This document shows, in pieces, positions 8,537 through 49,781 of a stretch of 64,000 nt of DNA (its first letter is position 1; every line of letters starts with the position of its first letter). A program made the position numbers and the translations under genes. This stretch comes from an uncultured Clostridia bacterium. GTDB taxonomy: Bacteria; Bacillota; Clostridia; TANB77; CAG-508. The notes beneath the pieces were generated by a model. That model was given only the letters and a program-made list of their open reading frames with translations. It searched no databases and was not told where the DNA came from. The stretch is taken from NCBI GenBank assembly GCA_934119935.1, contig CAKOSX010000001.1:332299-396298 (forward strand), in the 5' to 3' direction.

Positions 8537-8590
8537 GAATGAAAAGAGAAATTGGAGTTTTATATAACTTTAATTTTTTTCTTTTTATAA

Positions 8591-8671
8591 GGGAATCGAA
8601 AAGGAGGAGCAGAAATTAGTCCTGAGGACTAATTTCCCGACGCGGCTCGACGATTCCCATCATCTGCTCCA
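8591..8671 (+). other. tRNA 3'-end mimic element, copy 2 (Gly-CCC type)
   Basis: Same core as copy 1, but the 3' part is cgattcccATCATCTGCTCCA, matching the 3' end of tRNA-Gly(CCC) rather than Gly(UCC). Confidence 0.7.
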
Positions 8672-8726
8672 TAAAGTAAAAGAAAAATTAGAGCTTTTTT
8701 AAAACTTTAATTTTTTATTTTTTTGA

Positions 8727-8795
8727 GGCAATCGAAAAGGTGTAATAGAAATTAGTTTGGAAAATTAAATTTTCGATGTGGCTTGGCGATTTTCA
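8727..8795 (+). other. Degenerate third copy of tRNA 3'-end mimic element
   Basis: ggcaatcgaaaaggtgtaatagaaattagtttgg...gatgtggcttggcgattttcat; recognisably the same core but decayed. Confidence 0.5.
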
Positions 8796-8842: not shown

Positions 8843-8919
8843 ATAAATAGTCCGAAAATTTTTTTTGTGAAACTCGGTAAGTCCTCCGAATTGAGAGGCA
8901 CGAGAAAAGGAGAGAGTAT

Positions 8920-9328
8920 TATGGCACACATTCTCGTAAACGCGTTCGCATTATCGATGCTTCCTCTGGAGGCTATGAATTTTGTTCGGGTGAAGAAGAT
9001 CAACCCGAATGAAGTTCCGGCAGACGTTGAATCTGCCATCGGCCATACGGACACTGCGAAAGTGGTGTCTGGCATCTTGGGTTTCGAGGTGAAGCCTAAC
9101 CGGGTTAGCATTAAGCTGACCGAGAGCGACGTCTTGTACGTTGCTCAGTACACTGGGCCGAGGCTGCCGGAGGGTGCAACCACCTTGCCGGAAGGCGCAA
9201 GCCTCGAGTTCTTCGAGGTCACCTTCCACAAGGAAGGATGCCGTGGATGCCATGGCTACGATTCTGGCACTTGCCAGAATTGTATCTTCAGCTTCTGGCT
9301 GAGCGGCGCTCCCATCATGGAGCGATAA
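8920..9328 (+). CDS. Hypothetical protein (136 aa) in high-GC (about 55%) cassette; possibly DUF1874-like
   Basis: ATG at 8920 with RBS aaaaggagagag preferred over the GTG at 8867 used by the ORF track; starts MAHILVNAFALSMLPLE. Confidence 0.55.
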
Positions 9329-32927: not shown

Positions 32928-33719
32928 ATGGACATACCATTGTATACAACTAAACAATTGAAGAAAAAGGAGCATGACTTTTGTCTATGTATTCCAATAT
33001 ATAATGAAGGAAGAAAAATAACAAGTGAATTACAGAAGGCTAATAGCTTTGGTGTAACTAATGTAGTAGATATTGTACTGTTAGATGGTGGCTCTACGGA
33101 CGGCACAACAGATATTGAATTTCTACAAACTAACAATGTAAACACATTAATAGAGATGGAAGAAAAAGGATTATATAGACAATCAGAGGCGCTAAAAGCT
33201 GGATTCGATTTTGCAATTAAAAGAAATTATGCAGGCGTAGTAACAATAGATGGAAACAACAAAGATGGAATAAATAAAGTAATAGACTTTGTAGAAAAGC
33301 TAAAAGAAGGCTATGACTATATTCAAGGTTCCAGGTTTATTGAAGGAGGAACAGAAAGAAATACTCCTCCAATAAGATTGTTTGCCATCAAGTGTATTCA
33401 TGCGCCCATAATTTCTTTTATTTGTAAAAAGAAGTACACAGATACAACTAACTTATTTAGAGGATATTCGATGAAATATTTGCAAGATAATAGAGTGCAA
33501 CCGTTTAGAAAAGTATTCAAATCGTACGAGTTATCTACTTATTTGTCGACCAGAGCCGATCAACTTGGAATGAAAACATGCGAAATACCAGTCGATAGGG
33601 AATATCCCTATACTAAAAAGTATCCTACAAAGGTTGGAAAAGTAAAGGGAAATGCACTTATAATAAAATCGCTTATAGAGGATTTGTTTGGAAAATATAA
33701 TATTAATGGGGAAAAATGA
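32928..33719 (+). CDS. Family 2 glycosyltransferase
   Basis: CIPIYNEG...VLLDGGSTDGT GT2 DxD region; 4-nt overlap with downstream fkp-like gene. Confidence 0.75.
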   Translation: MDIPLYTTKQLKKKEHDFCLCIPIYNEGRKITSELQKANSFGVTNVVDIVLLDGGSTDGTTDIEFLQTNNVNTLIEMEEKGLYRQSEALKAGFDFAIKRNYAGVVTIDGNNKDGINKVIDFVEKLKEGYDYIQGSRFIEGGTERNTPPIRLFAIKCIHAPIISFICKKKYTDTTNLFRGYSMKYLQDNRVQPFRKVFKSYELSTYLSTRADQLGMKTCEIPVDREYPYTKKYPTKVGKVKGNALIIKSLIEDLFGKYNINGEK

Positions 33720-36697
33720 TGAAGAATTATAAAGAAACGTTTATGAGAGAAACTTATAAAGATTGCTGGATGTACTATAAGCAAACATTAGAAAAAAATT
33801 ACGAAAATGTGTGGGATTGGGTGGTTGTAACAGCTTCAAACGATGAGCAAGCCGAATTTTATGAGTCTGAAATAAGTAGCAGAAAAAATGCTGGATTACT
33901 GCCACAAAAAACGAAATTTATAGTAGTTGCAGACATCAAAGGGAAGAGAATTGGTTCTGGTGGTGCAACTTTAAATGTTATAAAGAGAATCAAGGAAGAA
34001 CAAGAAAAGATTGATAATCTAAAAATTTTGGTTTTGCATTCTGGAGGGGATAGCAAAAGAATTCCACAGTATTCTGCGTCAGGCAAGCTGTTTGCTCCAA
34101 TCCAGAGAACATTGCCAGATGGAAGAAGTTCCACCATTTTTGATGAGATATTGATATCGTATTCTGCTATTCCTAGTAGAATGCAGGCTGGAATGCTAAT
34201 ATTATCTGGTGATGTCCTGTTTTTGTTTAGTTGTTTTCAGGTGAATTTGCAATATGTTGATAGTGCAGCAATTTCTACGAAAGCAACAATTGCAGAAGGA
34301 ATTTGTCATGGCGTTTTTGTAACAGACAAAGACAATTACGTAAAAAAATTTTTGCATAAACAGCCAGAACAGGTATTAGAGAATCAGAATGCTATAGACA
34401 AAAATGGATTTGTTGATATAGATACAGGAGCTGTATATTTTAATTCTAAGATTGTTGAGGAGTTGTATAATCTAATTTCGGAAAACGGTGAAACGAATAA
34501 TGACAAATTTAATGAATTCGCAAATGAGAATGTTAGAATAAGTTTGTATAATGATTTTGTATATGTATTATCTAAAGAGGCAACCCTCGAATCTTATTTA
34601 AAAGAAAAGCCAGAAGGTAGATTTTCAAAAGAATTAATTGAATGCAGAAAAAAGATATGGGGTAGGTTGGGCAAATATACTATGAAAGTTATAAAAACAT
34701 ATCCATCAAAATTTATTCATCTTGGAACAAATGCTGAACTTCTTAAATTTTTAAATTCAGAAAAAGAGATATTTAATGACTGGAATTTAGAAAGAAATGT
34801 GTTGTGTAACATAAAAGGCAAAAGCTTCACAACAAATACTTCATACATAGATGAGAACACAATTGTTGGAGATGGATGTTATATAGAACATAGTAGAATA
34901 ATGAACTGCAAAATAGGTAAGAACTCCATAATTTCAAATACCGAGCTGGAAAATGTGGTTGTGCCAAGCAATGTATGCATCAACACATTAAAGCAGAAAG
35001 ATGGTAAGTATGTTACAAGAATATGGGGAATAGAAGATAATGCCAAGAAGAACATTAAAGAATCAACACTGTTTGGTAATTCTATTAAAGAGAAATTCCT
35101 TAATATTGACAACAATCAAAATATGGAACTATGGAATGCAAAACTCTATGTTCCATGTGATACTCGTAAGGATAGTGTATTTTATGCACTGCTATTGTAC
35201 AATATTTGTAATGGAAAAACGTCAAAAACAGATGAAGAAAAATATCTTTGCAGACCAAGAGTAAGTCTAAGTGAAAGCTTTGAAAACTGTGATATAAATT
35301 ACTTAGTTCAACAACATAAATTATTAGAAGTAGAAATAAGAAGCCTGCAGTTTATAAAAAAGATAATGGATAAACAACCACTAAAAAAGAATATAGATAT
35401 ATTGCTAAATAGTCCTGATGTAAATTTGCAAATAGAAAATTTGCAAACAAAGGCCATTGAAGAAGAACCGTATGTTAGGCTAAGAATATATATGGGACTG
35501 GAATTAATTAATAAAACAATAAAGAAGTATCAGTGTGGATATTTTGAAAATATGTGTTATGACGAAATCGAAAACATGATAAGTCAACATGATAGTGCAT
35601 GGATTAGCAACAAGCACCGAAAAGAAAGCACGGTAGAAATGCCAATAAGAGTCAACTTTGGAGGAGGATGGTCAGACACACCCCCATATTGTAACGAAAA
35701 TGGAGGAAGTGTGTTAAATGCCGCATTTTTGCTAAACGGTAAATTTCCTATAAGATGCAGTGTAAAAGAAATAAAAGATAGTAAAATAATACTAAGAAGT
35801 ATAGACTTAAATATCGAAAAAGAATTTACAAAGATAGAGCAGCTAAAAGATTGCGGCAACATAAACGATGAATTTATATTGCTAAAATCGGCACTTGTAA
35901 TTAGCGGAGTAATTCGAGAGAGTGACAAAAATATAGAAGACGTCATACAAAGAATCGGTTGTGGAATATGTTTAGAGACAGATGTGACACAGGTACCTAA
36001 GGGCTCTGGATTAGGAACGAGCAGTATACTTGCCGGTGCATGCATTAAAGCAATATATCAATTCTTTAATGTTGAAATATCGGATGAAGAAATATGTTAC
36101 AAAGTGCTAGAACAAGAACAGCTGATGGAAACTTGCGGTGGATGGCAGGATCAAATTGGCGGAATATTGCCGGGGGTAAAATATACTTGCACAGAAGCGG
36201 GAAATAAACAAAAATTTAACATAGAAAGCCTACAATTATCAGAAAAAATAATTAAACAAATTAATGAAAGAATGGTGCTAATTTATACTGGACAACAGAG
36301 AATAGCAAAAAATCTACTGCGAGAAATTATGAACGACTACATAATAAACAATGAAAACACTTGCAAAACAATAAGCAAAATAAAAATGATGGCAGGCAAA
36401 ATGAAGAAAAGCTTAGAAGAAAACAACTTACAAGAATTTTGCAAATTACTTAATGAACATTGGAAACTATCAAAAAAATTAGATGCAGGATGCACGAACA
36501 CATGCATAGACCAAATTTTAAATGCATGTGATGACTTAATAGATGGCAGGATGATTTGTGGAGCCGGTGGCGGAGGCTTTCTTCAAGTAGTGACGAAGCA
36601 AAATGTAAAGAAGGAAGAAATAGCAAATAGAATTAGCCAAGTATTTCAAGAGAGTGGAGTACAAGTTTACAATGTAGAAATATGGAAAAATAGATAA
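33716..36697 (+). CDS. fkp: Bifunctional L-fucokinase / fucose-1-phosphate guanylyltransferase (Fkp-like)
   Basis: 993 aa; N-terminal GDP-fucose pyrophosphorylase-like domain; C-terminal GHMP kinase ATP motif PKGSGLGTSSILAGA. Confidence 0.7.
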   Translation: MMKNYKETFMRETYKDCWMYYKQTLEKNYENVWDWVVVTASNDEQAEFYESEISSRKNAGLLPQKTKFIVVADIKGKRIGSGGATLNVIKRIKEEQEKIDNLKILVLHSGGDSKRIPQYSASGKLFAPIQRTLPDGRSSTIFDEILISYSAIPSRMQAGMLILSGDVLFLFSCFQVNLQYVDSAAISTKATIAEGICHGVFVTDKDNYVKKFLHKQPEQVLENQNAIDKNGFVDIDTGAVYFNSKIVEELYNLISENGETNNDKFNEFANENVRISLYNDFVYVLSKEATLESYLKEKPEGRFSKELIECRKKIWGRLGKYTMKVIKTYPSKFIHLGTNAELLKFLNSEKEIFNDWNLERNVLCNIKGKSFTTNTSYIDENTIVGDGCYIEHSRIMNCKIGKNSIISNTELENVVVPSNVCINTLKQKDGKYVTRIWGIEDNAKKNIKESTLFGNSIKEKFLNIDNNQNMELWNAKLYVPCDTRKDSVFYALLLYNICNGKTSKTDEEKYLCRPRVSLSESFENCDINYLVQQHKLLEVEIRSLQFIKKIMDKQPLKKNIDILLNSPDVNLQIENLQTKAIEEEPYVRLRIYMGLELINKTIKKYQCGYFENMCYDEIENMISQHDSAWISNKHRKESTVEMPIRVNFGGGWSDTPPYCNENGGSVLNAAFLLNGKFPIRCSVKEIKDSKIILRSIDLNIEKEFTKIEQLKDCGNINDEFILLKSALVISGVIRESDKNIEDVIQRIGCGICLETDVTQVPKGSGLGTSSILAGACIKAIYQFFNVEISDEEICYKVLEQEQLMETCGGWQDQIGGILPGVKYTCTEAGNKQKFNIESLQLSEKIIKQINERMVLIYTGQQRIAKNLLREIMNDYIINNENTCKTISKIKMMAGKMKKSLEENNLQEFCKLLNEHWKLSKKLDAGCTNTCIDQILNACDDLIDGRMICGAGGGGFLQVVTKQNVKKEEIANRISQVFQESGVQVYNVEIWKNR

Positions 36698-36778
36698 AAC
36701 ATTAGAACATTATGTTAGAAAAATAACAAAATGGTTGGTAAAAAATATGTTGAAAAAAGCTAAAAAATTGACAACTTT

Positions 36779-36810
36779 GTTGCATGGAAAATTTATTAAT
36801 GGTATACTTT
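36779..36810 (+). promoter_or_regulatory. Promoter of phase-variable surface protein gene
   Basis: TTGCAT-17 nt (ends TGg)-TATACT, extended -10. Confidence 0.5.
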
Positions 36811-36841
36811 AGGCAAAGTAAAAACTTAGGAGGAAAGAGGA

Positions 36842-38825
36842 ATGAATAAGAAAATAAAAGAGGCTGAAAACCTTATGGCTGTACACACACACACACACAC
36901 ACGGACATTTTAAAGAAAAGGGAATAACATTAATTGCATTAGTAATCACAATTGTTGTTCTACTAATTCTAGCAGGAATAAGTTTGAACTTAGTACTTGG
37001 TGAGAACGGCATTGTTACGAAGGCGAAAGATGCAAGAGAACAAACAATAATAGGGCATGAAAAAGAGCAAATAAACTTAGCATATTCAGCATGTAAAACA
37101 AGAGAAAACTTTGATGATTTAGTTACAGCAAGTGAACTCGAAACAGAAATGAAAAAGTCAAATGAAAATGTATCTGTAGCAGCAGACGGAGACAATCTTG
37201 TTATTACGTTTGAAGAGACGAAGCACCAATACAACATTGGACAAGATGGAAGTTTTAAAGAAAATACTAATCAAAATATTGATTGGAGCACATTAGAGCC
37301 AGGGTTATACAAGACGGGAACATCAGAGATGATAAAATCTTGGCAAGAATTGATTGATGATGGAGACATAACAGTAGAAGGAACAAAGCTTAATGAAATT
37401 AAGACGATTTTTAGTTATGGCCAAGATGTAACTATGCCTCTGGCAGGAGATTTGATTATATCAAATGATATGACAGAAATTGGTAGCCTTACAGGAGGAA
37501 AAGCAGCTTGCTATGTTGGAAAATCAGGCATTACAGGCGTATATGTTCCATCAAGTGTAAAAAAGTTGACAAGTAGTAGTCAGTATGGCTATGGTGGCTT
37601 TTTTGCTATGTTTGATATGAAGAAAATTGTTATTGAAGAAGGGCTGGAAGAAATAGGAGATTATTCGTTTGCTAGTTGTTACAATCTTATAGAGGTAGAA
37701 TTACCAGATAGTGTTACAACAGTTGGTGACTATGCTTTCGCATGGAGCAGTAATATAGTGAATGTAAAAATACCGGATAATGTTATACTTGGCAAAGCAT
37801 GCTTTATAAGTAATAGATTAACCCAAATTCCTCAAAACATAACATCGATTGGTGAAACTATGTTTGCTAACTGTGAAGAATTGAAGGTGGTCAATATTCC
37901 AAATGGTATTACATCAATTGGAGCTAGAGCTTTTTCCGGTTGTGGTAATATAACGAGTATTAATATTCCAAGTAGTGTAAAAGTAATAGGAGAAGGAGCC
38001 TTTTTATACTGTGGTAATATAACGAACATTAATATTCCAGCTAGTGTAAAAGTAATAGGAAGAGAAGCTTTTTCCCGTTGTGGTAATATAACGAGTATTA
38101 ATATCCCAAATAGTGTAAAGAAAATAGGAGCTGAGGCTTTCAAGGATTGTGTGAACCTATCTGACATAAATGGATTTGACAATGCAATTTCAGTTGGTCT
38201 AAGGTCTCTAGATGGAACAAAGTGGTATAATAGTCAACCAGATGGAGAGGTATATATAGGAAAGACATTGTATAATTATAAAGGAACAATGTCAGCCGAT
38301 ACTAGATTAAAAATAAAAGATGGGACAGAAAATATTGCTGATAGAGCTTTTGAAGACTGTACAGGGCTAATTGAAGTGACACTACCATCTAGTGTAAAGA
38401 ATGTAGGAGAATATTGTTTTTATAATTGCAAAAATTTATCTGATGTAAATGTAAATGAAAGCATTGAGAGAATTGGATGGTGTGCTTTCAGCGGAACAAA
38501 ATGGCAAGATAGTCAAAATGATGGGTATATATACATAGGAAATGTACTTTATTATTATAAAGGTAGTGAAAGACCAAAAGAAGTACAGGTCAAGGATGGG
38601 ACAATCAGTATTACGGAAAGTGCTATTTATCCAGATACTATAATCATACCTAAAAGCGTGAAATATATAGGAGAAGGAATATTAGGAAGTAGGTGGAGTT
38701 GGAGTACATCACATAATTGTGTTGTAAATTATATGGGAACAGAAGAGGAATGGAATTCAATTGAAATTGAAGAATCAAATTTTTCTGGCAATCTTACCAT
38801 AAACTACAATTATACTGGAGAATAA
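36842..38825 (+). CDS. Prepilin-like-leader BspA-type leucine-rich repeat surface protein, phase-variable, currently frameshifted OFF
   Basis: ATG 36842 with RBS aggagg reads MNKKIKEAENLMAVHTHTHTRTF-stop. The -1 frame continues GHFKEKGITLIALVITIVVLLILAGISLNLVLGENG and LRR_5 repeats (IP.SV.SIG..AF..C). No start codon in the long frame. Confidence 0.7.
36883..36902 (+). repeat. (AC)10 dinucleotide tract inside 5' coding region
   Basis: gtACACACACACACACACACACgg at codons 15-21 of the ORF starting at ATG 36842. Confidence 0.95.
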
Positions 38826-38831
38826 TTTAAA

Positions 38832-40532
38832 GTGAACAAACTAAAAAAATATCTAACTAAAGAAAATATTATAATAACTATAGTCCTACTAGTTGGAGCT
38901 ATTATATCTTCCGTTTTTATGTTCAAGCAGGTATACAACGGAATAGATACCGCATATCACATGTCAAGAATAATCGGCATAACAAACAGCTGGAAAGCTG
39001 GAGATTTACTAGCATACATACATTTGAACACTAGTGGATATGGCTATGCAATGGGTTTCTTTTATAGCAATTTATTTATTATTCTACCTAGCATTTTATA
39101 TATGCTAGGTATGAACATAATTTTAGTATATAAAATATTTATACTAATGTGCAGCATTGCAACTGCAATAACCATGTACATATGCACAAAACAAATAAGC
39201 AAAAGCAAGTATGCAGCAACTATATCAGCATTTTTATACACAACTTGTAGCTATAGAATAATTACTCTTGTTGTGAAGGCTTTTGTTGGCGAGATTCTAA
39301 GCTTCATTTTTATCCCACTAATAATTTTAGGATTGTACCAATTAATTTTTGGAGATTCAAAAAAGTGGTGGATTTTTACTATTGGATTTGTTGGAATTTT
39401 GAATTCTAATCTGGTAATGACGGAAATTATGATTTATATTTCTGCTGTTTTTGTATTGTGTAATATTAAAAAGATTATAAAGGATAAGGGCAGACTCAAG
39501 GGTTTCATAAAAGCGACTGTTTTAGCATTGTTAGTAAGTGCAATGTTTTGGATGCCTATGATTGAACAGCTTATAAAATCAACATTTCACATGAAAGATG
39601 GAATGAACATGTATAGGCCTACATGGTGGCTGTTAAGTTTTGGGGACTTATTTAACGGGCTGATGAAGCTCGGAACCCAAATTACGCCTGCTTATGGACT
39701 TGGTTTTATATTTATTGTGATAGCAATATTACGTTTAGCAATAAGAAATGTAGATGCACAAAAGCTAAAATTTTGCGATATATCAATTTTAGCAGGATTG
39801 GTGTTATTGCTATGCATGACAAAATTTTTTCCATGGAAATACTTAAAAACTTTAGGAGGAATGATTCAATTTCCAAGTAGACTAGAAGTGCCAGCGGCAG
39901 CATTTTTCTCAATTGCATCTGGAATGATCTGCCACTACTTAACGGAGAAAAAAACAATATTAAGAAGAATTATTTTTGGAATAATCATAATATATCAGAT
40001 TGGATTTGTGTTTATGTGCATAAAATCTTGTGAAGATGCTCTGATTGAAGTTGAGCTATACAGAGGACTTGATAGTGTATATATTGATGAGAATTTTGAG
40101 TACGATATTTGCGATGGCATGTATTTGCCGGAAGGCGCAAACGTACAAAGTAAACTGATAAGCCACGGAAGGCATGAAGAAAAAGAAGATAAATATAAGA
40201 CTAATAATAGCGAGTGTAATTTCAAATATGCAAAGAATGGACTTAAAGTAAACATATCATTTGAAAACAATAAAGAAGTCAATACTTATATAGAAGTTCC
40301 AATTTATTACTATTATGGTTATGTAGCAGAAAATCCAGAAAATAACACAAAATATAAAATCGAAAAAGGAGACGAAGGCGTAATTCGAGTATATTTGGAA
40401 AATTCGGAATCTGGAACAATACAAATATATTATAAAACTACAATAGTTCAGAAATTATCAATTATTATTACAATTGTAACATTATTGGGAATAATAATTT
40501 GCAAAAAAAATCAGCATAATGGGCATTTGTAA
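38832..40532 (+). CDS. Polytopic membrane protein, putative GT-C type glycosyltransferase (YfhO/O-antigen-ligase-like)
   Basis: 566 aa, 10+ TM with C-terminal extracytoplasmic domain; GTG start 6 nt after LRR gene stop. Confidence 0.5.
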   Translation: MNKLKKYLTKENIIITIVLLVGAIISSVFMFKQVYNGIDTAYHMSRIIGITNSWKAGDLLAYIHLNTSGYGYAMGFFYSNLFIILPSILYMLGMNIILVYKIFILMCSIATAITMYICTKQISKSKYAATISAFLYTTCSYRIITLVVKAFVGEILSFIFIPLIILGLYQLIFGDSKKWWIFTIGFVGILNSNLVMTEIMIYISAVFVLCNIKKIIKDKGRLKGFIKATVLALLVSAMFWMPMIEQLIKSTFHMKDGMNMYRPTWWLLSFGDLFNGLMKLGTQITPAYGLGFIFIVIAILRLAIRNVDAQKLKFCDISILAGLVLLLCMTKFFPWKYLKTLGGMIQFPSRLEVPAAAFFSIASGMICHYLTEKKTILRRIIFGIIIIYQIGFVFMCIKSCEDALIEVELYRGLDSVYIDENFEYDICDGMYLPEGANVQSKLISHGRHEEKEDKYKTNNSECNFKYAKNGLKVNISFENNKEVNTYIEVPIYYYYGYVAENPENNTKYKIEKGDEGVIRVYLENSESGTIQIYYKTTIVQKLSIIITIVTLLGIIICKKNQHNGHL

Positions 40533-40657
40533 GCCAGTACCTTGTATAGCCTATAAAATTGACATATTATGTTTAGTATAGTATAATAAAAAAAGGTCAT
40601 TTCAATTGTTGTGCACGGATGTAATTACATTTTATCACAAAGAAAGGAAGGGTTTTT

Positions 40658-42031
40658 ATGAAGCAACGGAGGCAAAGAAGGAGGGCCCACACAGATTTTT
40701 ATGTAGTGGGAATACTATTTTTGCTTGTAATTGTTGGAGTGTGGGTGTTTAGCAACACACACTTCCTAAGAGGTACGTTCATTGGAGGAGTTGACTGCTC
40801 GTATTTAACAGTCGACGATGCCTTGAACAAAGTTCAACAGGAGGCAGGAGAATACACAAATAAGCTGTACTTTATCGATGAAACGACATATGATGTGAAA
40901 AACTGCGAGATTGGAGTTGTTTTTGAACGGGATAAGTTCGAGAGCGTTTTCAAGAGACAGCATGATGACAAAAATGTTAACAGAGTTTATGGAGTTAGCG
41001 ATGTAACGTCGATTAACGAAGGACAAGTCGCAATGTATCTGACAACGATTCCGGAATTGCAGCAGGCGAATATGGTGGAGCCGAAAGATGCTCACATAAC
41101 TTGGGATGGTGCAAGTTTTGGAACCGAAAAAGAAACCATTGGCAACATGATTGATTTTAACGAAGCACTGGAATTCACGCTTCAAGAGCTTAGAGCCGAT
41201 GAAAACGAAATCTATCTTTCTGATATAACTCGGTCAGTACCTAGTGTGACTGAGGGAGATCTTGAAGGAAGAGTGGCGTATCTGAATAGACTTTTGAAGA
41301 GCTGTATTAACATTACTTTAAGCGATGGATCTGTTGTGACGCTTGACTATAACACGATAAAGTCGTGGATCGGGCAAGATGAGAATGGAGACTTCTCTAT
41401 TAATGTTAATGCTGGCGTTCCGAGTTTTGTTGAAGAATTGGCTACAAAGGTCGATAAGGCAAATGCAACAATGCGTTTTAAGGCTACCAACCGGAGCAAT
41501 CTTGTTAGCGTAAAGGTTCCCAAGAGCCGTAGAGCTAAGTTAAACAAGGAAGCCGAAGCAAATCAGCTGGAAGCATTGCTGGGGTCTACCGAACCTGTGG
41601 ATTGTACTCCAATCTATGAAGGAAATTTAATTTCCGAAGCCGATTTGTCAAATCGTGTCGAAATCGATATTACAAATCAGCATGTCTGGATGTATAAAGA
41701 CAATACGCTCATTGCAGACACAGACTGCGTCACTGGCAACGAAAGTGCTGGACACAGTACGCCTACGGGAGTGTACAAGTTGATATACAAAGAAAGGGAC
41801 AGATATCTCAGAGGCAAAAACGATGACGGAACTGACTATTGTTCGTTTGTGAAATACTGGATGCCGTTCAACGGAGGAGTCGGATTGCACGACGCATCGT
41901 GGCGCAGTAAATTTGGCGGAGACATTTACAAAAACGGTGGTTCACACGGTTGCGTAAATCTTCCCAGAAGCGTTGCGGAAACGATATATAACAACATCGA
42001 CAGTTCCTATTTCATAATCGTGTACAAGTAA
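40658..42031 (+). CDS. L,D-transpeptidase (YkuD domain) with N-terminal anchor and VanW-like region
   Basis: C-terminal HDASWRS...GGSHGCVNL catalytic His/Cys motif; locally elevated GC. Confidence 0.75.
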   Translation: MKQRRQRRRAHTDFYVVGILFLLVIVGVWVFSNTHFLRGTFIGGVDCSYLTVDDALNKVQQEAGEYTNKLYFIDETTYDVKNCEIGVVFERDKFESVFKRQHDDKNVNRVYGVSDVTSINEGQVAMYLTTIPELQQANMVEPKDAHITWDGASFGTEKETIGNMIDFNEALEFTLQELRADENEIYLSDITRSVPSVTEGDLEGRVAYLNRLLKSCINITLSDGSVVTLDYNTIKSWIGQDENGDFSINVNAGVPSFVEELATKVDKANATMRFKATNRSNLVSVKVPKSRRAKLNKEAEANQLEALLGSTEPVDCTPIYEGNLISEADLSNRVEIDITNQHVWMYKDNTLIADTDCVTGNESAGHSTPTGVYKLIYKERDRYLRGKNDDGTDYCSFVKYWMPFNGGVGLHDASWRSKFGGDIYKNGGSHGCVNLPRSVAETIYNNIDSSYFIIVYK

Positions 42032-42094
42032 TTGAAAAGTTAGGTGCAGTGAAAATTGCAAATAATTTAGAAATTACAAGTGCAACAGAGAACC

Positions 42095-42135
42095 CTATGC
42101 AGAGGCGAGCTCAATGAGCTCGTCTTTGCGTTTTG
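42095..42135 (+). terminator. Rho-independent terminator
   Basis: gcgagctc-aat-gagctcgtc hairpin then TTTGCGTTTTGTG. Confidence 0.5.
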
Positions 42136-42255
42136 TGTTAATTATTTCAGCTATATTTCAATTAGATTTTAGTTACATTACAATTTGGCTAAAATATTGA
42201 AACAACCCGTATCATGTGCTACAATATACTTTATAAACTGTATGTAGGGGGAAAA

Positions 42256-43392
42256 ATGATGATAAATTTAAACCAAGGAAGAAAATATAAACAACTAAAC
42301 AAAGGAATAACTCTGGTGGCTCTTGTTGTAACGATTGTAGTTTTGCTTATATTAGCAGGAATAAGCATTAATCTTTTATTGGGTGAGAATGGCATAATAA
42401 AAAAAGCGAAAGAAGCGAGAGAAAAAACAGCAGAGGGCAAAACAAATGATATGCTTGGAATGAACCAGCTTATACAAGATATGTATGACTTAGAAAATTC
42501 CGAGAACAAAAAAGAGAATGATAAGGGTGATGACAAATCTGACGAAGTAAAAAAGTATAAAGTTACTATTCAATTTATTAATAGAGAAAATCAAAGCATA
42601 GTAAATTTTGGTAGTATCGAAATCTATGAAGGAGAATCAATTGGTCAAGATGCGAAGCAAATTGCAACCATTAGTGGAAAAAATGAAACAGAAAATGTTA
42701 TTTCTTTAGCTAAAGGCACATATACTGTAAGATGTTTGAAAGCACCTGATGGATACAAAAAAACAGCAGAAGATATTACTTTTAATGTGGATGAAAATGA
42801 TGAAAATAAATGGAAGATTGAAGTTACAAACGGTTCTTCAATATTACCTTCGACTGGTTCTTCTAGTATATACAGTATAACAGTTGAAGACGGAAGTAGT
42901 AACATTTCTACAAAAGGTGTTCAGTCTTTAACAGTACAATATGAGGGGCGTGAAGGAGTTAGATTAGAAATTATACCAATTGGAGAATATGATGAAAATA
43001 CGAAAAAAATTGTTGTAGATGATGAAATCGCCTCAATACTCGGAATAGAAAAAGAATTTGATAATAGAATAGTTGACTCGTCAAAAGCTGAAGATGTATA
43101 TCAGTATGTTAAGAAAAAACAGTTAATTGGAATTTCTAGTATAACCGACAGTGATGGGCGTTCTACGTTTTCGGAACTTGTGCCAAATATATATTTTGTA
43201 AAAACATCGTTGAGTAGCAAGTGTGATTTTATAATTAGTATGCCACTTTATGTGAAGGTGCCCGATGAAGAAGTATGTTATTATAATAGTGTTACTTTAA
43301 CACACGAAAAAAGAGGTACAGATAAGGAAGATGATTACTTTCTTGGAATTACAGACAATATAGATCAACCAATACCACCAATAAAAAAATAA
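42256..43392 (+). CDS. Prepilin-like-leader protein with two CnaB/SpaA-type pilin-like domains
   Basis: Leader KGITLVALVVTIVVLLILAGISINLLLGENGII; CnaB signature GTYTVRCLKAPDGYKK...ITFNV; second domain DGRSTFSELVPNIYFVKT; internal LPSTG. Confidence 0.6.
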   Translation: MMINLNQGRKYKQLNKGITLVALVVTIVVLLILAGISINLLLGENGIIKKAKEAREKTAEGKTNDMLGMNQLIQDMYDLENSENKKENDKGDDKSDEVKKYKVTIQFINRENQSIVNFGSIEIYEGESIGQDAKQIATISGKNETENVISLAKGTYTVRCLKAPDGYKKTAEDITFNVDENDENKWKIEVTNGSSILPSTGSSSIYSITVEDGSSNISTKGVQSLTVQYEGREGVRLEIIPIGEYDENTKKIVVDDEIASILGIEKEFDNRIVDSSKAEDVYQYVKKKQLIGISSITDSDGRSTFSELVPNIYFVKTSLSSKCDFIISMPLYVKVPDEEVCYYNSVTLTHEKRGTDKEDDYFLGITDNIDQPIPPIKK

Positions 43393-43401
43393 AGTGAAAA
43401 A

Positions 43402-43432
43402 CAGACAGCATTTTATTACTGTCTGTTTTTCA
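43402..43432 (+). terminator. Rho-independent terminator
   Basis: acagacag-cattttattact-ctgtctgt hairpin plus TTTTT. Confidence 0.65.
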
Positions 43433-43482
43433 TTTTCAAATGAATAATTGCAATATGCCTTCGTGCCTATTATTTGGCAATT

Positions 43483-43530
43483 TGTACATTTTTTGCTCCG
43501 TCCCCGAAATGCTTTCCCGAAATGCTCTTT
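43483..43530. repeat. Inverted GGGGACGGAG/TGTACA unit
   Basis: TGTACAttttttgCTCCGTCCCCgaaatgctttcccgaaatgc. Confidence 0.7.
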
Positions 43531-43595
43531 TAAAATCTGGTTTTATGTGTTAGAATATATAGGAAAAATAATGTTTTAGAGAGGATTTTGCAATA

Positions 43596-44549
43596 ATGGC
43601 AGGGATAGTTGGAATTACAGAAATTAAGAACAGATTGCCACAAGATTTTGTAGATAATTTGTATGAATTGTTTACGCCTGGCGTGGTAGATAATATTTTT
43701 AGAGGAATAGCCGAAAAAAGGCTTACTACTCTAAGGGTAAATACACTGAAATATGATATTCAAAGTTTGATGAAGTATTTTAAAGAGATAAATATAAAGT
43801 TTGAGAGAGTGTTATGGTATAATGATGCTCTTATTATAAAGAATGCAAATGAGAAGGATATTCAAAAACTTGATATATACCAGAAAGGGTATATTTATTT
43901 GCAAAGTTTGTCGAGTATGGTTCCACCACTTGTTTTGAATCCGAAAGATGGCGAAAATGTACTTGATTTGACGGCAGCACCGGGAAGTAAAACTACTCAA
44001 ATTGCAGCTTTAATGAATGGAAAAGGCTATGTTTTAGCAAACGAATTGGATAAGCTAAGATGTGAAAGGCTAAAATACAATGTTCAAAGCCAAGGGGCAG
44101 ATATTGTTGAGGTTGTTAATGGTAGAGGAGAAAAAATTGGTGAGCAGTATCCAGAAAAATTTGACAAAGTTTTGCTAGATACGCCATGTAGTGGAGAAGG
44201 AAGATTTACAATATACAATGTACAAAGCTACAAAACATGGTCAACCAAAACAGTTAACGATTTAACAAAGATGCAAAGAAAATTATTCAAGAGTGCATTT
44301 AATAGCTTAAAGCCGAATGGAACTCTAGTTTATTCTACGTGTACACTAAACAAGCAGGAAAACGAAGAGATTTTGCAATGGGCACTAGATAATTTTAATG
44401 TAAAGTTGGCACCAATCAACATTGATATAAGAGAAGGTCTCCCAGCATTTAATGCAGGAATGAATAAAGACATAAAAAAAGCGATAAGAATACTACCATC
44501 TAAAAATATGGAAGGATTCTTCGTATCTAAATTTATAAAGGGAGAATGA
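43596..44549 (+). CDS. rRNA cytosine-C5 methyltransferase (NOL1/NOP2/Sun, RsmB/RsmF-like)
   Basis: LDLTAAPGSKT SAM motif; DTPCSGEG and TLVYSTCT catalytic Cys motifs. Confidence 0.75.
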   Translation: MAGIVGITEIKNRLPQDFVDNLYELFTPGVVDNIFRGIAEKRLTTLRVNTLKYDIQSLMKYFKEINIKFERVLWYNDALIIKNANEKDIQKLDIYQKGYIYLQSLSSMVPPLVLNPKDGENVLDLTAAPGSKTTQIAALMNGKGYVLANELDKLRCERLKYNVQSQGADIVEVVNGRGEKIGEQYPEKFDKVLLDTPCSGEGRFTIYNVQSYKTWSTKTVNDLTKMQRKLFKSAFNSLKPNGTLVYSTCTLNKQENEEILQWALDNFNVKLAPINIDIREGLPAFNAGMNKDIKKAIRILPSKNMEGFFVSKFIKGE

Positions 44550-44654
44550 AAAAACATAGAAATAAAAATCTAAAATAAAAGATAAAACTATAAGAGATGA
44601 AAAACTCGAAGCAACAAAGTAATGTAAAATAAAAAGAAAGGAATGAATTTTATA

Positions 44655-45533
44655 ATGAAAGACGAATTAATAGACTGCCTAGCCTACGACGGAAAGGTAA
44701 GCATAAAATGTATATCATCGAAAGAAATAGTAGAAACAGCAAGAAAGCTACACGACCTAAGCCCAACAGCATCAGCTGCATTGGGAAGATTACTTACAAT
44801 AACAAGCATAATGGGGTATGAGTTAAAGACAGATGAGGCTTCTGTAACAAACCAAATAAAAGGCGATGGCCCAATTGGAATTTTAACAGCAGTTGGTGCA
44901 TGCAATGGAAATGTAAAAGGATATGTTGGCAACAGCAAGATTGATCTACCAATAAGAGAATCAGATGGAAAAATTGATGTTGGTGAAGCCGTTGGAAAAC
45001 AAGGAATGTTATATATAATAAAAGACCTTGGAATAGGCAAGCCATATGTTGGAATGACTCAAATTGTGAGTGGTGAGATTACAGAAGATTTTACAAACTA
45101 TTTTGCAACATCTGAACAAACCCCAACAGTAATTGCACTTGGAGTATTAGTAGACAAAAACGGAATAAAATCTGCCGGAGGCTACAAACTTTCTTTAATG
45201 CCAGATGCTGGAGAAGACGAAATTTCAAAAATAGAAGAGCAAATAAAAAACATCGAACCTGTAAGCAAAATGTTAGACGAAAATAAAACATTAGAAGAAA
45301 TTGCAAGAGCTGTAACAGGAGACGAAAATTTACAGATCCTTGATAGAATAACACCAAAATTTGAATGCAATTGTTCAAGAGAAAAATGCGAAAAAGGATT
45401 AATCGCAATAGGAAAAAAAGAACTAGAAGACATCATAAAGGAAGAAGAAAAAATACAAATAGAATGCAACTTCTGTGATACAAAATATGAATTCACAAGA
45501 GAAGAATTACAAGAAATTGCAAATAAAATGTAA
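44655..45533 (+). CDS. hslO: Redox-regulated chaperone Hsp33
   Basis: C-terminal zinc centre CNCSREKC ... CNFCD; N-terminal YDGKVSIKCISS; start placed at MKDEL. Confidence 0.85.
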   Translation: MKDELIDCLAYDGKVSIKCISSKEIVETARKLHDLSPTASAALGRLLTITSIMGYELKTDEASVTNQIKGDGPIGILTAVGACNGNVKGYVGNSKIDLPIRESDGKIDVGEAVGKQGMLYIIKDLGIGKPYVGMTQIVSGEITEDFTNYFATSEQTPTVIALGVLVDKNGIKSAGGYKLSLMPDAGEDEISKIEEQIKNIEPVSKMLDENKTLEEIARAVTGDENLQILDRITPKFECNCSREKCEKGLIAIGKKELEDIIKEEEKIQIECNFCDTKYEFTREELQEIANKM

Positions 45534-45550
45534 AAAGTATAGAAGGTAAA

Positions 45551-46213
45551 ATGAAAAATTTATTAATAGATTCTAGAATTAGAAAAGAAGAAAATGAATA
45601 TTTGAGCCAATATTTCACTGTTATAAAAATCCCATTATCAAAAGATGTATACGAAGAAATCTCAGGGCATAGCGACATATTCTATTGCAAGCTACAAGAC
45701 AAAATAATATGTGCTCCTAATGCACCAATAAAAGAAAAAAACTTCATAATTGGAGATAGCAAAGTAGAAAAAACATATCCCAAAGACATTCCATATAACG
45801 CTTGTGAAATAGGCAGTTTAATTATTGGCAGTAAATACACAGACAAAAAAATAAATACAAACATAATTGTAAAACAAGGGTACACCAAATGTTCAATCTG
45901 CGTAACAAGTCCAAATTCATGCATTACAAGCGACTTTTCAATTGCAAAAAAACTTAAAGAAAATGGAATAGATTCAACTTATATAGAAGAAAATAATATA
46001 AGATTATTAAAAAAAGATGCAACATATTCAAAAATGAAAGGTTTTATTGGAGGCGCAAGCTTTGTGTTTGACAATAAATTCGTTCTATTTGGTGACATAG
46101 AAAAACTCGAAAGCAAAGAAAAAATTAAAGAACACATAAAAAAATACAATTTGCAACTAATAGATTTTAAAGGGCTTGAAGTACACGATTACGGAGGAGC
46201 AATTGAATATTAA
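45551..46213 (+). CDS. Hypothetical protein (220 aa)
   Basis: Intact ORF, no recognisable motif. Confidence 0.45.
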   Translation: MKNLLIDSRIRKEENEYLSQYFTVIKIPLSKDVYEEISGHSDIFYCKLQDKIICAPNAPIKEKNFIIGDSKVEKTYPKDIPYNACEIGSLIIGSKYTDKKINTNIIVKQGYTKCSICVTSPNSCITSDFSIAKKLKENGIDSTYIEENNIRLLKKDATYSKMKGFIGGASFVFDNKFVLFGDIEKLESKEKIKEHIKKYNLQLIDFKGLEVHDYGGAIEY

Positions 46214-46402
46214 GAATGAGCCAAAGTTGAAAGAATTAATATCAAAAAACGTAGAAATCAATAATAAGGTACATATCAAAAATCTGCAATAATCAACAGG
46301 GAAAGCAAGACTTATGCAAGTTTAAGAAAACACATAAAAAATATTGCAGTAAAAGGCCATTAATGATATACTATATCCGAAAAAAACTTAGGAGGAAGAG
46401 TG

Positions 46403-48016
46403 ATGAAAGAAAAAAATATGCAAAACAAAAGCATTGAGATTGGAAAATCACAAGAAAAGAAAACAAGAGCAAAAGGAATAACGCTAATTGCCTTAGTAAT
46501 AACAATAGTTATACTACTAATATTAGCAGGAATAAGCATAAACCTGGTATTAGGCGAAAACGGAATAATATCAAAAGCTCAAGAATCAAGGCTAAAGTCA
46601 GACAATGCAACAGTTTCAGACTCATTAAAAATGATGATAGCAAGATACTCAATAGACGACATGGGCGAAGGCAAAACAGACGTACTTGCAAGACTGAATT
46701 CTGATGGAATAACAGACGCAAACGATGTAATAAATGTACCAGTTTTAGTCGGGGAAAAACTTGGAACAGGAAATGGTAGTGGAACAAAAGATGTGTATGT
46801 TATAAAAGATAACAAATTATACTACTATGACAAAAAAGGCGAAAAAACAGACCTTGGAGATATAGCCAACTTGCAATTTAGCGGAGACAAACAAGAATCT
46901 GGAATATTTGTAATTACATCAGATGGAACAGTATACATGAAAGATAGGCAGTCTGGAGTTTATAGCGATGAATATGAGCGTTCTACAAAAGAGGTTATAA
47001 TTCCGAGTGAAATAAATGGAATTAAAGTAAAAAAACTTGGAAATTATATGTTCTGTAACTACATTGCTTTAGAAACTGTTGGAATTCCGGATGGAGTAAC
47101 TGAAATTGGAAATTATGCTTTTTATGGTTGTAGCAAAATTGACAATATTGTTATGCCAAACAGTGTTGAATGGATTGGAAAAGGTGCTTTTTGTGAATGT
47201 AGTGAAATTGCTAATATTATAATACCAGATGGTGTTACTAGCATAGGAGATCTTGCTTTCGCAGGGTGTTCTGGCTTGGAAAATATAAAAATGTCGGAAA
47301 ATATACAATATGTTGGAGATTTAGCTTTTGCAGGAACCAAATGGCTAAAAACACTTCCAGAAGGACTACTTTATTTTGGGAATATTCTTTATGCTTATAA
47401 TGGAGAAATACCACAAGGTACAACTATAGAAATTAAAGATGGAGTTACAAGAATTAATGGAGAGGCTTTTTCAAATCAAAAGGGGCTAATAGCCATAAAA
47501 ATACCAGATAGCGTTAAAAAAATTGGAGGAAGTGCTTTTAGTGGATGCAGTGAACTGACAAGCATAATAATACCTGATAGCGTAACAAGTATAGGAGAAG
47601 ATGCTTTTGAAGATTGTACTAAATTATCAAGTATAGATATTTCTGATAGTATAGAATATGTAGGATATGATGCTTTTCAAAGGACAGCATGGCTTAACAA
47701 TCAAAACGATGGAGTGGTTTATATTGGAAAAATATTATACTGCTATAAAGGAGAAATGCCAAGCAATACAACTATAACGGTAAAAGAGGGAACTACAAGT
47801 ATTGCTGGAATCTGTTTTGCAGAATGTACAAACCTTATAAGTATTACAATCCCAAAGAGCGTAACATATATAGGAATGGGAGCATTTTATATGTGTGATA
47901 ATTTAAAAACAATAAATTATAAAGGTTCAAAGGAAGATTGGAATAATATAACAATTGAAATACAGGCACCTGATGGATCTGGAATAACTGCAACTATCAA
48001 TTATAATTATAAATAA
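46403..48016 (+). CDS. Prepilin-like-leader BspA-type leucine-rich repeat surface protein
   Basis: RAKGITLIALVITIVILLILAGISINLVLGENGII leader; multiple IPDSVTSIGD.AF..C LRR_5 repeats; RBS ttaggagg. Confidence 0.65.
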   Translation: MKEKNMQNKSIEIGKSQEKKTRAKGITLIALVITIVILLILAGISINLVLGENGIISKAQESRLKSDNATVSDSLKMMIARYSIDDMGEGKTDVLARLNSDGITDANDVINVPVLVGEKLGTGNGSGTKDVYVIKDNKLYYYDKKGEKTDLGDIANLQFSGDKQESGIFVITSDGTVYMKDRQSGVYSDEYERSTKEVIIPSEINGIKVKKLGNYMFCNYIALETVGIPDGVTEIGNYAFYGCSKIDNIVMPNSVEWIGKGAFCECSEIANIIIPDGVTSIGDLAFAGCSGLENIKMSENIQYVGDLAFAGTKWLKTLPEGLLYFGNILYAYNGEIPQGTTIEIKDGVTRINGEAFSNQKGLIAIKIPDSVKKIGGSAFSGCSELTSIIIPDSVTSIGEDAFEDCTKLSSIDISDSIEYVGYDAFQRTAWLNNQNDGVVYIGKILYCYKGEMPSNTTITVKEGTTSIAGICFAECTNLISITIPKSVTYIGMGAFYMCDNLKTINYKGSKEDWNNITIEIQAPDGSGITATINYNYK

Positions 48017-48035
48017 ATTTTATAGGAGGTAAAAA

Positions 48036-49487
48036 ATGAACAAAAAGATTTGTTTATCAACCATTTTAATGACATTAATCATGCTAATTACAATGGTAAC
48101 AAGTGTATATGCTGCAAATGAAGATGTAACGCTTGTTAAAGTAAAGGACAACGTATGTACGATTAAGTTAGGAGATGACGGAGAAGTTATTAAACAACTT
48201 ATTTCTGTGGATAACGAGAAAAAAGAAGTTACTTTGCAAATTGATGTAAAGAATTTAAAGAGTAAGGAAGAAGAAATTCAACCAACAGAAATGTTTCTAG
48301 TTATCGATGATTCTAAGAGTATGTCTGATAATACTTTGTCAAGTGGAAAGACTAGAAAAGAGGCTGTGTTTACAGCTGCAAAGACTTTAGCAAAGCAAAT
48401 TTTAGAAGAACAACCAAGTACAAAGATTGGTGTTGTAAGTTTCTCATCAAACTCTGAAATTTCTAAAGAAGGAACACTAGAGGATGCAAAGCTTGTAATA
48501 GAGCCAAGTAGTAAAATCAGCGATATTACAACCGCAATAGATAATATCGAAACAACTGGTGGAAGAACTAATATTGATGCAGGTTTGCAAACTGCAAAAG
48601 CACATTTTTCAACAGATACAACACTTAATAAGTATTTAATATTGTTGACTGATGGAGTTCCAAATAACTCAGTTGGAACATCTTCAACATATTCTGGAGA
48701 CACTGCAAAAAATACAAAAGCTACTTTACAATCAATTAAAAATAGCGGAATAAATATTGTAACTGTTATGACAGGTGTTAACTCAACATATCAACCAGAC
48801 CCAACCGGAGCTGTATCTGCAGATGCCGCTGGAAAAACATATAAAGACCTAGCAGAAGAAATTTTCGGAACACAAGAAGCTCCAAGTTACGGAAAATTCT
48901 ATTATGTTTCAGATGATTCTGTTGAGGATACGATTACGAAAGTGGTTTATCAAGATGTAAGAACTGTAATAGAAAATGAAATTAAGGATATTACTGTTGT
49001 TGACTATTTCCCATTAGATATTGTTGAAAATTATGATTTTGAAATTTTTGAAGAAGCCAATATTGGAACTGTAACTCCAACAGTAGATACAGCCAATAAT
49101 ACCATCACATGGAAAATTACAACTTTAAAAGCTGGAGAGACAGCTTCGTTTAAATATAAATTAAAATTAAAAGAAAAATTTAATGAAAAAATTATAAATG
49201 TGGAGACTCCAACAAATCAAAAGCTTGATGTTAACTACACTGGAACAGATGGGAAAACTAAAAATGTATCATCTGATGTTTCTCCTTCGATAATGTTAAA
49301 GAAGGACGAAGTGCCAGAACCAACTCCAGAACCAACGCCGGAGCCAACACCAGAACCTAAGCCAGACAATACAATCGCACCAGATCCAATTCCACAAACA
49401 GGAGATAACACAGCATTTGTTGTATTCGGAATCGCTGTGGCAGGAATTGCGTTAGCAGTATGTATAAAGAATAGAAATAACAAATAA
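48036..49487 (+). CDS. Secreted von Willebrand factor A domain protein with Pro-rich linker and PQTG sortase cell-wall sorting signal
   Basis: Sec signal MNKKICLSTILMTLIMLITMVTSVYA; vWA LVIDDSKSMS..GGRTNIDAGL..LLTDGVPN; (EPTP)4; IPQTGDNT + hydrophobic + KNRNNK. Confidence 0.75.
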   Translation: MNKKICLSTILMTLIMLITMVTSVYAANEDVTLVKVKDNVCTIKLGDDGEVIKQLISVDNEKKEVTLQIDVKNLKSKEEEIQPTEMFLVIDDSKSMSDNTLSSGKTRKEAVFTAAKTLAKQILEEQPSTKIGVVSFSSNSEISKEGTLEDAKLVIEPSSKISDITTAIDNIETTGGRTNIDAGLQTAKAHFSTDTTLNKYLILLTDGVPNNSVGTSSTYSGDTAKNTKATLQSIKNSGINIVTVMTGVNSTYQPDPTGAVSADAAGKTYKDLAEEIFGTQEAPSYGKFYYVSDDSVEDTITKVVYQDVRTVIENEIKDITVVDYFPLDIVENYDFEIFEEANIGTVTPTVDTANNTITWKITTLKAGETASFKYKLKLKEKFNEKIINVETPTNQKLDVNYTGTDGKTKNVSSDVSPSIMLKKDEVPEPTPEPTPEPTPEPKPDNTIAPDPIPQTGDNTAFVVFGIAVAGIALAVCIKNRNNK

Positions 49488-49781
49488 TAAACAATAAATA
49501 AGAAATTTTATGTAATAAAATTCTTGAAAACGAGGGATGCTCTTAGTGAATAAGAGTGTCCTTTTTTTGTGGAAAAAAAGAATAAAAACAGTAACTTATA
49601 TTAAAACATAACTATTCGAAAAACTTTGATATTTTAATATATACAGGGCATGAAAAATATTGCATATTAAAGAAGTTTGTGATAATATATACACTAATTA
49701 TAGCAATAGAAATATTATATAATAACATATAAATAAAACAAGGAAAGGAGAGCATTGCCTTTTAGTGATGCACGAAAATAG

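Follow-up and report, generated by a model that had tools for sequence, protein, structure and literature searches.

Dispersed adhesin-type genes of an uncultured gut Clostridia bacterium share a prepilin-like leader and likely encode modular type IV pilins, one of them apparently phase-variable

We analyzed a 64-kb window (64,000 nucleotides, positions 332,299 to 396,298 of contig CAKOSX010000001.1) of an uncultured Clostridia bacterium in which four genes, here termed g1 to g4, begin with a common N-terminal module that resembles the leader of type IV prepilins and continue into adhesin-type domains. We consider it likely that these genes encode modular type IV pilins, in which a prepilin-type stalk is joined to a binding module and displayed by a lineage-specific pilus. 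By sequence comparison, the stalk is of the same type as small pilins of related uncultured gut Clostridia, the operon genes of which lie directly upstream of a gene for a prepilin-peptidase homologue. The g1 gene additionally contains a dinucleotide repeat in its leader-peptide codons through which, as read from assemblies, its expression is toggled. The features concerned are, in window positions:

36780 to 36841, plus strand: 5' region of g1 with TTGCAT, 17 nt, a TG-n-TATACT promoter-like element and an AGGAGG ribosome-binding site
36842 to 36913, plus strand: start and leader-peptide codons of g1, out of frame in the window (OFF state)
36883 to 36902, plus strand: (AC)10 dinucleotide tract, a perfect repeat within the g1 leader-peptide codons
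36903 to 38825, plus strand: body of g1, with the pilin-like module to about 37259 and then a BspA-type LRR_5 passenger
42256 to 43392, plus strand: g2, with leader helix, short amphipathic helix, acidic/lysine-rich linker and SpaA/CnaB-type immunoglobulin (Ig)-like passenger
46344 to 46402, plus strand: 5' region of g3 with TTGCAG, 17 nt, TG-n-TATACT and AGGAGG, paralogous to the g1 5' region
46403 to 48016, plus strand: g3, with a 24-residue basic leader peptide, pilin-like stalk and LRR_5 passenger
57776 to 59386, minus strand: g4, with the four-residue leader peptide MKNK, a g1-type pilin-like module and three beta-sandwich repeats
58978 to 58601, 58555 to 58187 and 58150 to 57779, minus strand: the three g4 repeats, about 125 amino acids each
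36921 to 36923 (g1), 42304 to 42306 (g2) and 46475 to 46477 (g3), plus strand, and 59374 to 59372 (g4), minus strand: codons of the glycine at position -1 (Gly-1)

A six-frame motif scan found exactly four true copies of the module in the window, g1, g2 and g3 on the plus strand and g4 on the minus strand, in agreement with an earlier note on this DNA that had named these four genes. Each copy consists of a variable basic peptide, K-G and the helix ITL(I/V)ALV(I/V)TI(V/I)(V/I)L(L/I)I(L/I)AG(I/V)S, with (L/I)G(E/D)NGI after the hydrophobic helix. As in class III leaders, Gly-1 is present together with a Lys at -2 in all four genes, and it is directly followed by about 20 hydrophobic residues, which are predicted to form the N-terminal half of alpha-1.

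The earlier note had also put the identity of the module above 85%. This holds for g1, g2 and g3: over a 31-residue core, their protein identity is 87-94%, against a DNA identity of only 69-78%, with 14-18 codons that differ only synonymously versus 2-4 amino-acid replacements. It does not hold for g4, which shares 58-65% of the core and 46-52% over 46 residues with the others. As the protein is conserved while the DNA has diverged and synonymous differences prevail, the module is under purifying selection and was not copied recently.

The evidence that ties this leader to pili comes from related genomes. Searching GTDB species genomes with the pattern ITL[IV]ALV[IV]TI gave at least 598 stretches, and 79 GTDB loci were examined. 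At three loci (L057, L073, and L037), a stand-alone protein of 70-143 amino acids with the leader KGITL(I/V)ALV(I/V)TI(I/V)VLLILAG is encoded inside a pilus operon. These operons were recognized from the context of the short stand-alone members; a screen for machinery with a Walker-A regular expression had found only an ABC transporter and had missed them. The operon begins with a gene for a 540-566-aa protein and two genes for small membrane proteins (pilM/N/O-like), followed by the pilin and a gene with an A24_N_bact domain (pilD, 6.4e-30). It continues with two minor-pilin-like genes, PilB (T2SSE 4.9e-103 plus MshEN), a 367-aa PilT-like T2SSE ATPase and PilC (T2SSF). The same operon was reached via peptidase homologues in L085/86 and L087, and a metagenome scan with the peptidase profile yielded 60 loci with at least 700 nt of upstream sequence, 59 of which carried a leader-bearing pilin directly upstream of the peptidase homologue. 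These findings support the claim of the earlier note that the prepilin-like leader implies a dedicated pathway for interchangeable adhesins.

The operon pilins resemble the window genes in the leader: the g2 core is identical to the L037 operon pilin at 25 of 31 positions, and Ala+5 is found in 62 of 63 operon pilins. The L057 operon pilin scores above the Pfam N_methyl threshold (22.4 versus 21.2 bits). The operon pilins fall into two size classes, one of 68-78 amino acids that comprises the helix only and one of 128-199 amino acids. The small class is found in one sub-lineage (L037 9916-10128; L116, L120, L122, L125, L127, L151-L164), with about 63 mature residues; such a pilin would consist of an alpha-helix, lack a globular head and recall truncated Geobacter-type pilins. 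In the minor-pilin-like gene that comes first after pilD, an acidic residue is encoded at +5, with Gly-1 followed by FTGIE, YTGVD or ITGID. With an acidic +5 in the putative minor pilin and Ala+5 in the main pilins, the usual pattern is, as far as the sequences tell, inverted. In L089, L093, and L095, a leader protein of 304-475 amino acids is encoded about 8.5 kb downstream of the operon pilD, and because they lie on the same contigs, the operon and larger leader proteins co-occur in one genome. A stand-alone protein, P0158, was considered as a further pilus-operon pilin and rejected, as it lies on a 1.59-Mb contig after a ribosomal protein operon. Two of the operon genes are located as follows:

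Peptidase homologues: L057 10506 to 11324; L037 10237 to 11049; L073 10519 to 11343; also P0382-P0501
First minor-pilin-like genes: L057 11354 to 11779; L085 8849 to 9277; L087 10880 to 11305; L037 11046 to 11543

If g1 to g4 are modular pilins, their proteins would insert N-in/C-out, and pilus machinery encoded elsewhere in the genome would recognize them in trans. Cleavage would probably occur after Gly-1, between Gly and Ile. The pilus would then carry the proteins across the wall, with the tip as their most likely position, as has been proposed for modular pilins (PMC8179133), and the cell could thereby swap or switch off the adhesin that it presents.

The leader family extends far beyond the window. 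A word-indexed search with an 86-residue query returned 2,042 matches, and the leader motif was found in all of the best 120, which were read; in the family sample, Gly-1 was present in 119 of 120 and Lys or Arg at -2 in 97 of 120. Searching 1.84 billion cluster representatives with a leader profile gave 33,647 matches at E<=1e-3, of which 22,816 also reached E<=1e-10, so that the possibility raised in the earlier note, a leader conserved only through recent paralogous duplication, no longer applies. All 142 new top profile matches have Gly-1, Ile or Val at +1 and Ala+5. The peptide preceding Gly-1 comprises 4 to 40 residues and is unconserved. Nearly all of the best 80 of the at least 598 GTDB stretches belong to uncultured Clostridia or Clostridium from human, rabbit or chicken gut, with several leader loci per genome, some of which form tandem arrays; three or four leader genes stand in a row in L048 (8982-11638) and L072 (6912-17200). 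One 706-aa open reading frame (ORF), P0240, has two complete leader modules in series. The leader had no match in a phage collection, and a literature search with the motif string found nothing.

Most of the members found had neither a source name nor a Pfam domain, and a few were named 'type II secretion system protein' or 'hypothetical protein'. The passengers include FGE-sulfatase-like, LRR_5, SpaA, GLUG, Big_13, fn3, and RCC1 domains. The commonest, present at 42 of the 79 loci (L005-L083), is a domain of about 300 amino acids that ends in ...RGG...FR..L and has a sub-threshold FGE-sulfatase (SUMF1-like) Pfam match; the window genes do not contain it.

In the window, the four proteins combine the leader with different continuations. 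The pilin-like module of g1 runs through helix, GENG kink, helix, short helix and three to four strands. The similarity between g1 and g4 (34% identity over N-terminal residues 1-115) does not end with the helix; it also covers a small domain of about 80 amino acids, which follows the helix in many other family members as well. A beta-sheet head after the amphipathic helix is predicted for g1 and g4 from model and sequence, and for g3 from reading the sequence. With respect to the passengers, g1 and g3 are related throughout (30-37% identity) and both carry LRR_5 (3.7e-69 in g3), contrary to the earlier view that the passengers are unrelated. The g2 passenger is of SpaA type (4.8e-08), and the g4 repeats are 29-36% mutually identical and have no Pfam match; an AlphaFold2 model of one repeat showed a generic beta-sandwich (predicted local distance difference test score, pLDDT, 68.6). 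All four genes thus join a pilin-like module to a domain that is not specific to pili, LRR_5 in g1 and g3, SpaA in g2 and a beta-sandwich in g4, which is the architecture of modular pilins.

We also looked for alternative means of surface attachment. In the translations of g1 to g4, neither a C-terminal LPXTG-type motif with hydrophobic segment and basic tail nor any other evident C-terminal anchor signal was seen, and NCBIfam reported no LPXTG-anchor family for them. An internal LPSTG in g2 was rejected as a sortase signal, as no membrane segment follows and the motif is not conserved in strain L002.

For the g1 N-terminus, AlphaFold2 with an alignment of 120 sequences predicted a helix at residues 7-32, a break at GENG, helices at 37-67 and 76-84, and three strands (pLDDT 74.8). 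Foldseek found nothing significant against the PDB. Among the top 60 structural matches were Thermus PilA5/PilA4, MshA, PpdD, XcpX, C. difficile PilA1, Francisella PilE, P1 pilin, ComP, and PilV, mixed with unrelated folds. A PDB profile search aligned the leader in register with the N-termini of MshA and geopilin. The modeled fold of g1 is therefore compatible with a pilin, although not decisive.

The 5' regions of g1 and g3 are alike, with TTGCA(T/G), 17 nt and TG-n-TATACT followed by AACTTAGGAGGAA, which suggests one type of promoter and ribosome-binding site for both LRR pilin genes. A consensus promoter scan, the yield of which did not exceed that of shuffled sequences, did not list the g1 element; we infer its promoter role because it is conserved between the two paralogues. 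The g2 gene appears to be monocistronic, with terminator-like hairpins on both sides. Housekeeping genes, among them rsmF-like, hslO, and recG, lie between the four genes, which, unlike what the earlier note assumed, do not form one functional cluster. The divergent strain L002 has no g4 between recG and rimP, and its g1 has another leader peptide, contains no AC tract and is in frame; the pilin repertoire therefore differs among strains.

The earlier note had taken the gene at 36842 as intact. However, reading from this ATG through (AC)10 leads to a stop after 23 codons (MNKKIKEAENLMAVHTHTHTRTF, then stop), and the module and LRR body of g1 lie in another frame, in which the first listed start is the TTG at 36984. 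The tract is the only period-2 array in the window, and the gene is in frame with n = 8, 11, or 14 and out of frame with n = 9, 10, or 12. For n = 5, 8, 11, and 14, the predicted g1 proteins were searched for as exact sequences in a public collection. The (AC)11 form, an intact ON protein of 661 amino acids, was found, and its contig L088 (tract at 3042-3063) had 0 mismatches to the window over 7,985 bp. Scaffold L001 contains (AC)9 (483-500), which is out of frame, and had 0 mismatches over 21,616 bp. Each of the two differs from the window by one gap, the AC repeat, so that ON and OFF states occur among otherwise identical sequences. As the three assemblies differ in AC number alone and only (AC)11 gives the full protein, g1 is, on this reading of the assemblies, subject to translational phase variation by a slipped-strand (AC)n switch. 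Public copies of g1 are mostly OFF-type calls, with a 613-aa form on 22 contigs versus the exact (AC)11 form on 1.

The same kind of translational phase variation is known for Neisseria opa (PMC3745409). In opa with its CTCTT repeat (PMC3745409, PMC3960869) and in Gardnerella nanH3 (10.1101/2020.09.16.300947), as in g1, a tandem repeat in the leader codons shifts the frame and leaves the mature protein unaltered. The g1 tract differs in being a dinucleotide AC read as (Thr-His)n, within a class III leader and in a Gram-positive anaerobe, and in that switching is read from assemblies only. Four other family members have an in-frame (TH)n in the same position before Gly-1 (P0145, P0150, P0334, and P0335 are among the (TH)n members). 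In the 90% cluster of g1 orthologues (P0502-P0531), at least four unrelated alleles of the pre-Gly peptide with 7, 22, 23, and 28 residues precede a protein that is identical from Gly-1 onward. A variable pre-Gly peptide with an identical mature part is to be expected if this peptide is removed or functionless.

Several findings weigh against the assignment as pilins. All four window genes have Ile+1 and Ala+5, as the earlier note had recognized, and not the Phe or Met at +1 and Glu+5 of canonical leaders. Glu+5 is absent throughout the family, with Ala+5 in 118 of 120 and in 142 of 142 members. Pilin assembly normally requires Glu5, which forms a pair with the N-terminus of the following subunit, and the tip cap is the known exception (PMC10191384); here the whole family, including the operon pilins, is without it. 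The likeness to Glu5-less tip pilins such as GspK/XcpX and to the minor-pilin cap (PMC10191384) is limited, as only the cap lacks Glu5 in those systems, whereas here the small operon pilins have Ala+5 too; GspK, moreover, has no sequence similarity to this family beyond the helix. The leaders of g1, g2, and g3 reach only 15.9-16.9 bits with Pfam N_methyl (PF07963; 15.9 for g2 and 16.9 for g3), below the threshold of 21.2, and g4 has no N_methyl match; TIGR02532 was not reported for window proteins at E<=1, and NCBIfam contained no family matching the leader. The g2 protein, in addition, lacks the beta-sheet head.

The genomic setting also weighs on this side. Neither pilus machinery nor a prepilin peptidase was found within the window. 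Of the 79 GTDB loci, only 3, the tblastn-confirmed L057, L073, and L037, lie in a pilus operon. When 1,097 ORFs around the 79 loci were clustered, no conserved neighbor emerged at the dispersed loci, the best non-leader neighbor family being present at 7 of 79; the dispersed genes are thus without local machinery. With so few loci in operons, we infer their link to machinery acting in trans.

A further difficulty concerns the peptidase homologue. It comprises 270-282 amino acids with a four-Cys N-terminal domain (A24_N_bact, 1e-29 to 1e-30) and adjoins the pilin gene, so that in size, domain and position it resembles PilD/TcpJ, which are GxGD aspartyl proteases (PMC3584216). Unlike these enzymes, however, the homologues have no Pfam Peptidase_A24 (PF01478) match even at E<=10, and GxGD is found in 0 of 120. 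Cleavage can therefore not be assumed. Among the acidic residues, D126 and E205 are invariant (E205 in 63 of 63) and D176 is present in 62 of 63, with the invariant Asp in a GID motif; the second catalytic residue may be Asp176 or Glu205. When PDB sequences were searched with the peptidase profile, only zinc-finger noise came up, and nothing specific on Firmicute pilins without Glu5 or on peptidases without GxGD was found in literature searches.

These observations could also be explained if the helix were an uncleaved signal-anchor that tethers type II membrane proteins, with the shared sequence reflecting descent from a pilin gene and no involvement of pilus machinery. The peptidase homologue without GxGD and PF01478, the absence of Glu+5, the lack of machinery beside most family members and the sub-threshold N_methyl scores of the window leaders all fit this explanation. 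However, about 20 near-invariant helix positions under purifying selection across thousands of proteins are far more than membrane insertion requires, and Gly-1 is invariant precisely at the cytoplasmic face, while the peptide before it is hypervariable and accepts (TH)n insertions and allele replacement. Moreover, in 59 of 60 operons the pilin encoded next to pilD begins with the identical leader type, and a tethered adhesin would remain beneath the Gram-positive wall. We thus regard a signal-anchor, which the earlier note had listed as a candidate in the form of a novel system, as the weaker reading and as unlikely.

Quite unlikely, in our view, is display or secretion that depends on the machinery but involves no polymerization, in which the leader would target the proteins to a type IV machinery that would extract them or force them across the wall, like the Sulfolobus bindosome or a Gram-positive piston of the type II secretion kind, and the proteins would not be fiber subunits. 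There are precedents for this: archaeal sugar-binding proteins bear class III signal peptides and have an assembly system of their own (PMC3047682), and secretion in C. perfringens can depend on type IV pilus genes (PMC11580942). The missing Glu+5 speaks against canonical subunit docking, and g2 with its helix and no head domain would suit such a role. On the other hand, the operon encodes a PilT-like retraction ATPase and small pilins, which are typical of true pili, g1 and g4 have retained the pilin-like head, and modular pilins with a full pilin module do polymerize (PMC8179133). The Sulfolobus bindosome is similar in that a pilin-type leader is found on functional non-pilin passengers that need a dedicated type IV-like assembly system, and different in being archaeal with solute-binding passengers; evidence of a bindosome-like layer was not found here. 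The peptidase of the Sulfolobus bindosome is PibD.

Finally, the module could be a remnant of recent duplication in decaying paralogues and the frameshifted g1 a pseudogene or an assembly error, in line with the out-of-frame copies in the window and L001 and the predominance of OFF-type calls (22 contigs versus 1), but this is very improbable, as the frame is broken by repeat number alone in three independent assemblies that are one AC unit apart with 0 other mismatches, with (AC)11 the gene is intact and encodes 661 amino acids, four other members have an in-frame (TH)n at the same leader position, the pattern of synonymous and non-synonymous differences shows selection, and the family is very large.

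Modular type IV pilins as the preferred reading have their closest counterparts in PilB (von Willebrand factor A domain, vWA) and PilC (lectin) of S. sanguinis (PMC8179133, PMC9934059), another monoderm, in which a class III pilin module, a linker and a binding domain not specific to pili are combined. For these pilins, tip display for adhesion has been proposed, and such architectures are considered widespread and undercounted (PMC8179133). The S. sanguinis proteins differ in that they carry the IPR012902 (N_methyl) motif and are subunits of the pilus of their own species. In the Clostridia studied here, the genes are dispersed away from the machinery, with several per genome, they carry LRR_5, SpaA, and FGE-like modules, and at least one is apparently phase-variable. 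The concept of modular pilins has thus been described already, whereas no paper was found that deals with this leader, with main pilins that have Ala5 or with peptidases that lack GxGD.

The window as a whole is low-GC (about 31-32%) chromosomal DNA of a spore-forming Firmicute, with SpoIIM, germination protease, holA, murB, recG, hslO, rimP-nusA-infB and four tRNAs. Many public metagenome assemblies contain this species: in 33 index blocks of gut-type assemblies, the g3 protein was found as an exact match on the 22 contigs that were read. Among these is the 349,890-bp scaffold L001 (scaffold_2 of ENA assembly ERZ28615761), of which 21.6 kb was fetched and proved to be collinear with the window.

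The earlier note had placed two groups of neighboring genes in one cluster with the module genes, a vWA sortase substrate and GT-C membrane proteins; no link beyond adjacency was found for either. The first is:

48036 to 49487, 20 nt 3' of g3: gene of a vWA protein with a Sec signal, a GBS104-like Ig domain and PEPT repeats

The C-terminus of this protein has IPQTGD followed by a hydrophobic segment and basic tail, a weak NCBIfam LPXTG-anchor match was obtained, and the pilin leader is absent. From its sequence features, it is a predicted sortase-type substrate resembling the tip adhesin of a sortase pilus. A terminator-like hairpin (49532-49564) lies 3' of the gene. Around g1 (32928-40532), a GT2 glycosyltransferase gene and a fucokinase/GDP-fucose pyrophosphorylase (Fkp) gene are located upstream, and a gene for a YfhO-type GT-C membrane protein starts 7 nt 3' of g1; together, these genes look like a CsbB/YfhO-style set for extracytoplasmic glycosylation, the target of which may be the pilin or a wall polymer. 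Farther away, a stretch of higher GC content may be the scar of an integrated element: it contains a 136-bp direct repeat with 1.9 copies (8463-8771), which starts within the 3' end of tRNA-Gly(ccc), and a tyrosine-recombinase gene and a STIV B116-like ORF are close by (5798-6679, 8867-9328).

As a wider and more tentative proposal, which we put forward as a possibility, a large clade of uncultured gut Clostridia may use a non-canonical type IV pilus as the universal carrier of a very large, phase-variable repertoire of adhesin-tipped pilins, with Ile or Val at +1 and Ala+5 in every pilin and with loss of GxGD from the peptidase. If true, such pili would be built without the salt bridge from Glu5 to the N-terminus, some of them from main pilins that are a helix of about 63 mature residues only, and a combinatorial surface-display system would have been largely missed by current pilin signatures. 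Glu5 and a GxGD peptidase are treated as near-universal in the assembly of bacterial type IV filaments, and a family that departs from both rules and counts tens of thousands of representatives would be a natural test of the purpose of these features. A dedicated leader profile would re-label thousands of proteins. For the organisms, our findings suggest that pili carrying binding modules of LRR/BspA-type, Ig-like and lectin-like kinds are displayed by many of the uncultured Clostridia that are low in GC and form spores, and stochastic switching of some of these genes would bear on colonization, binding to host and mucus, and immune evasion.

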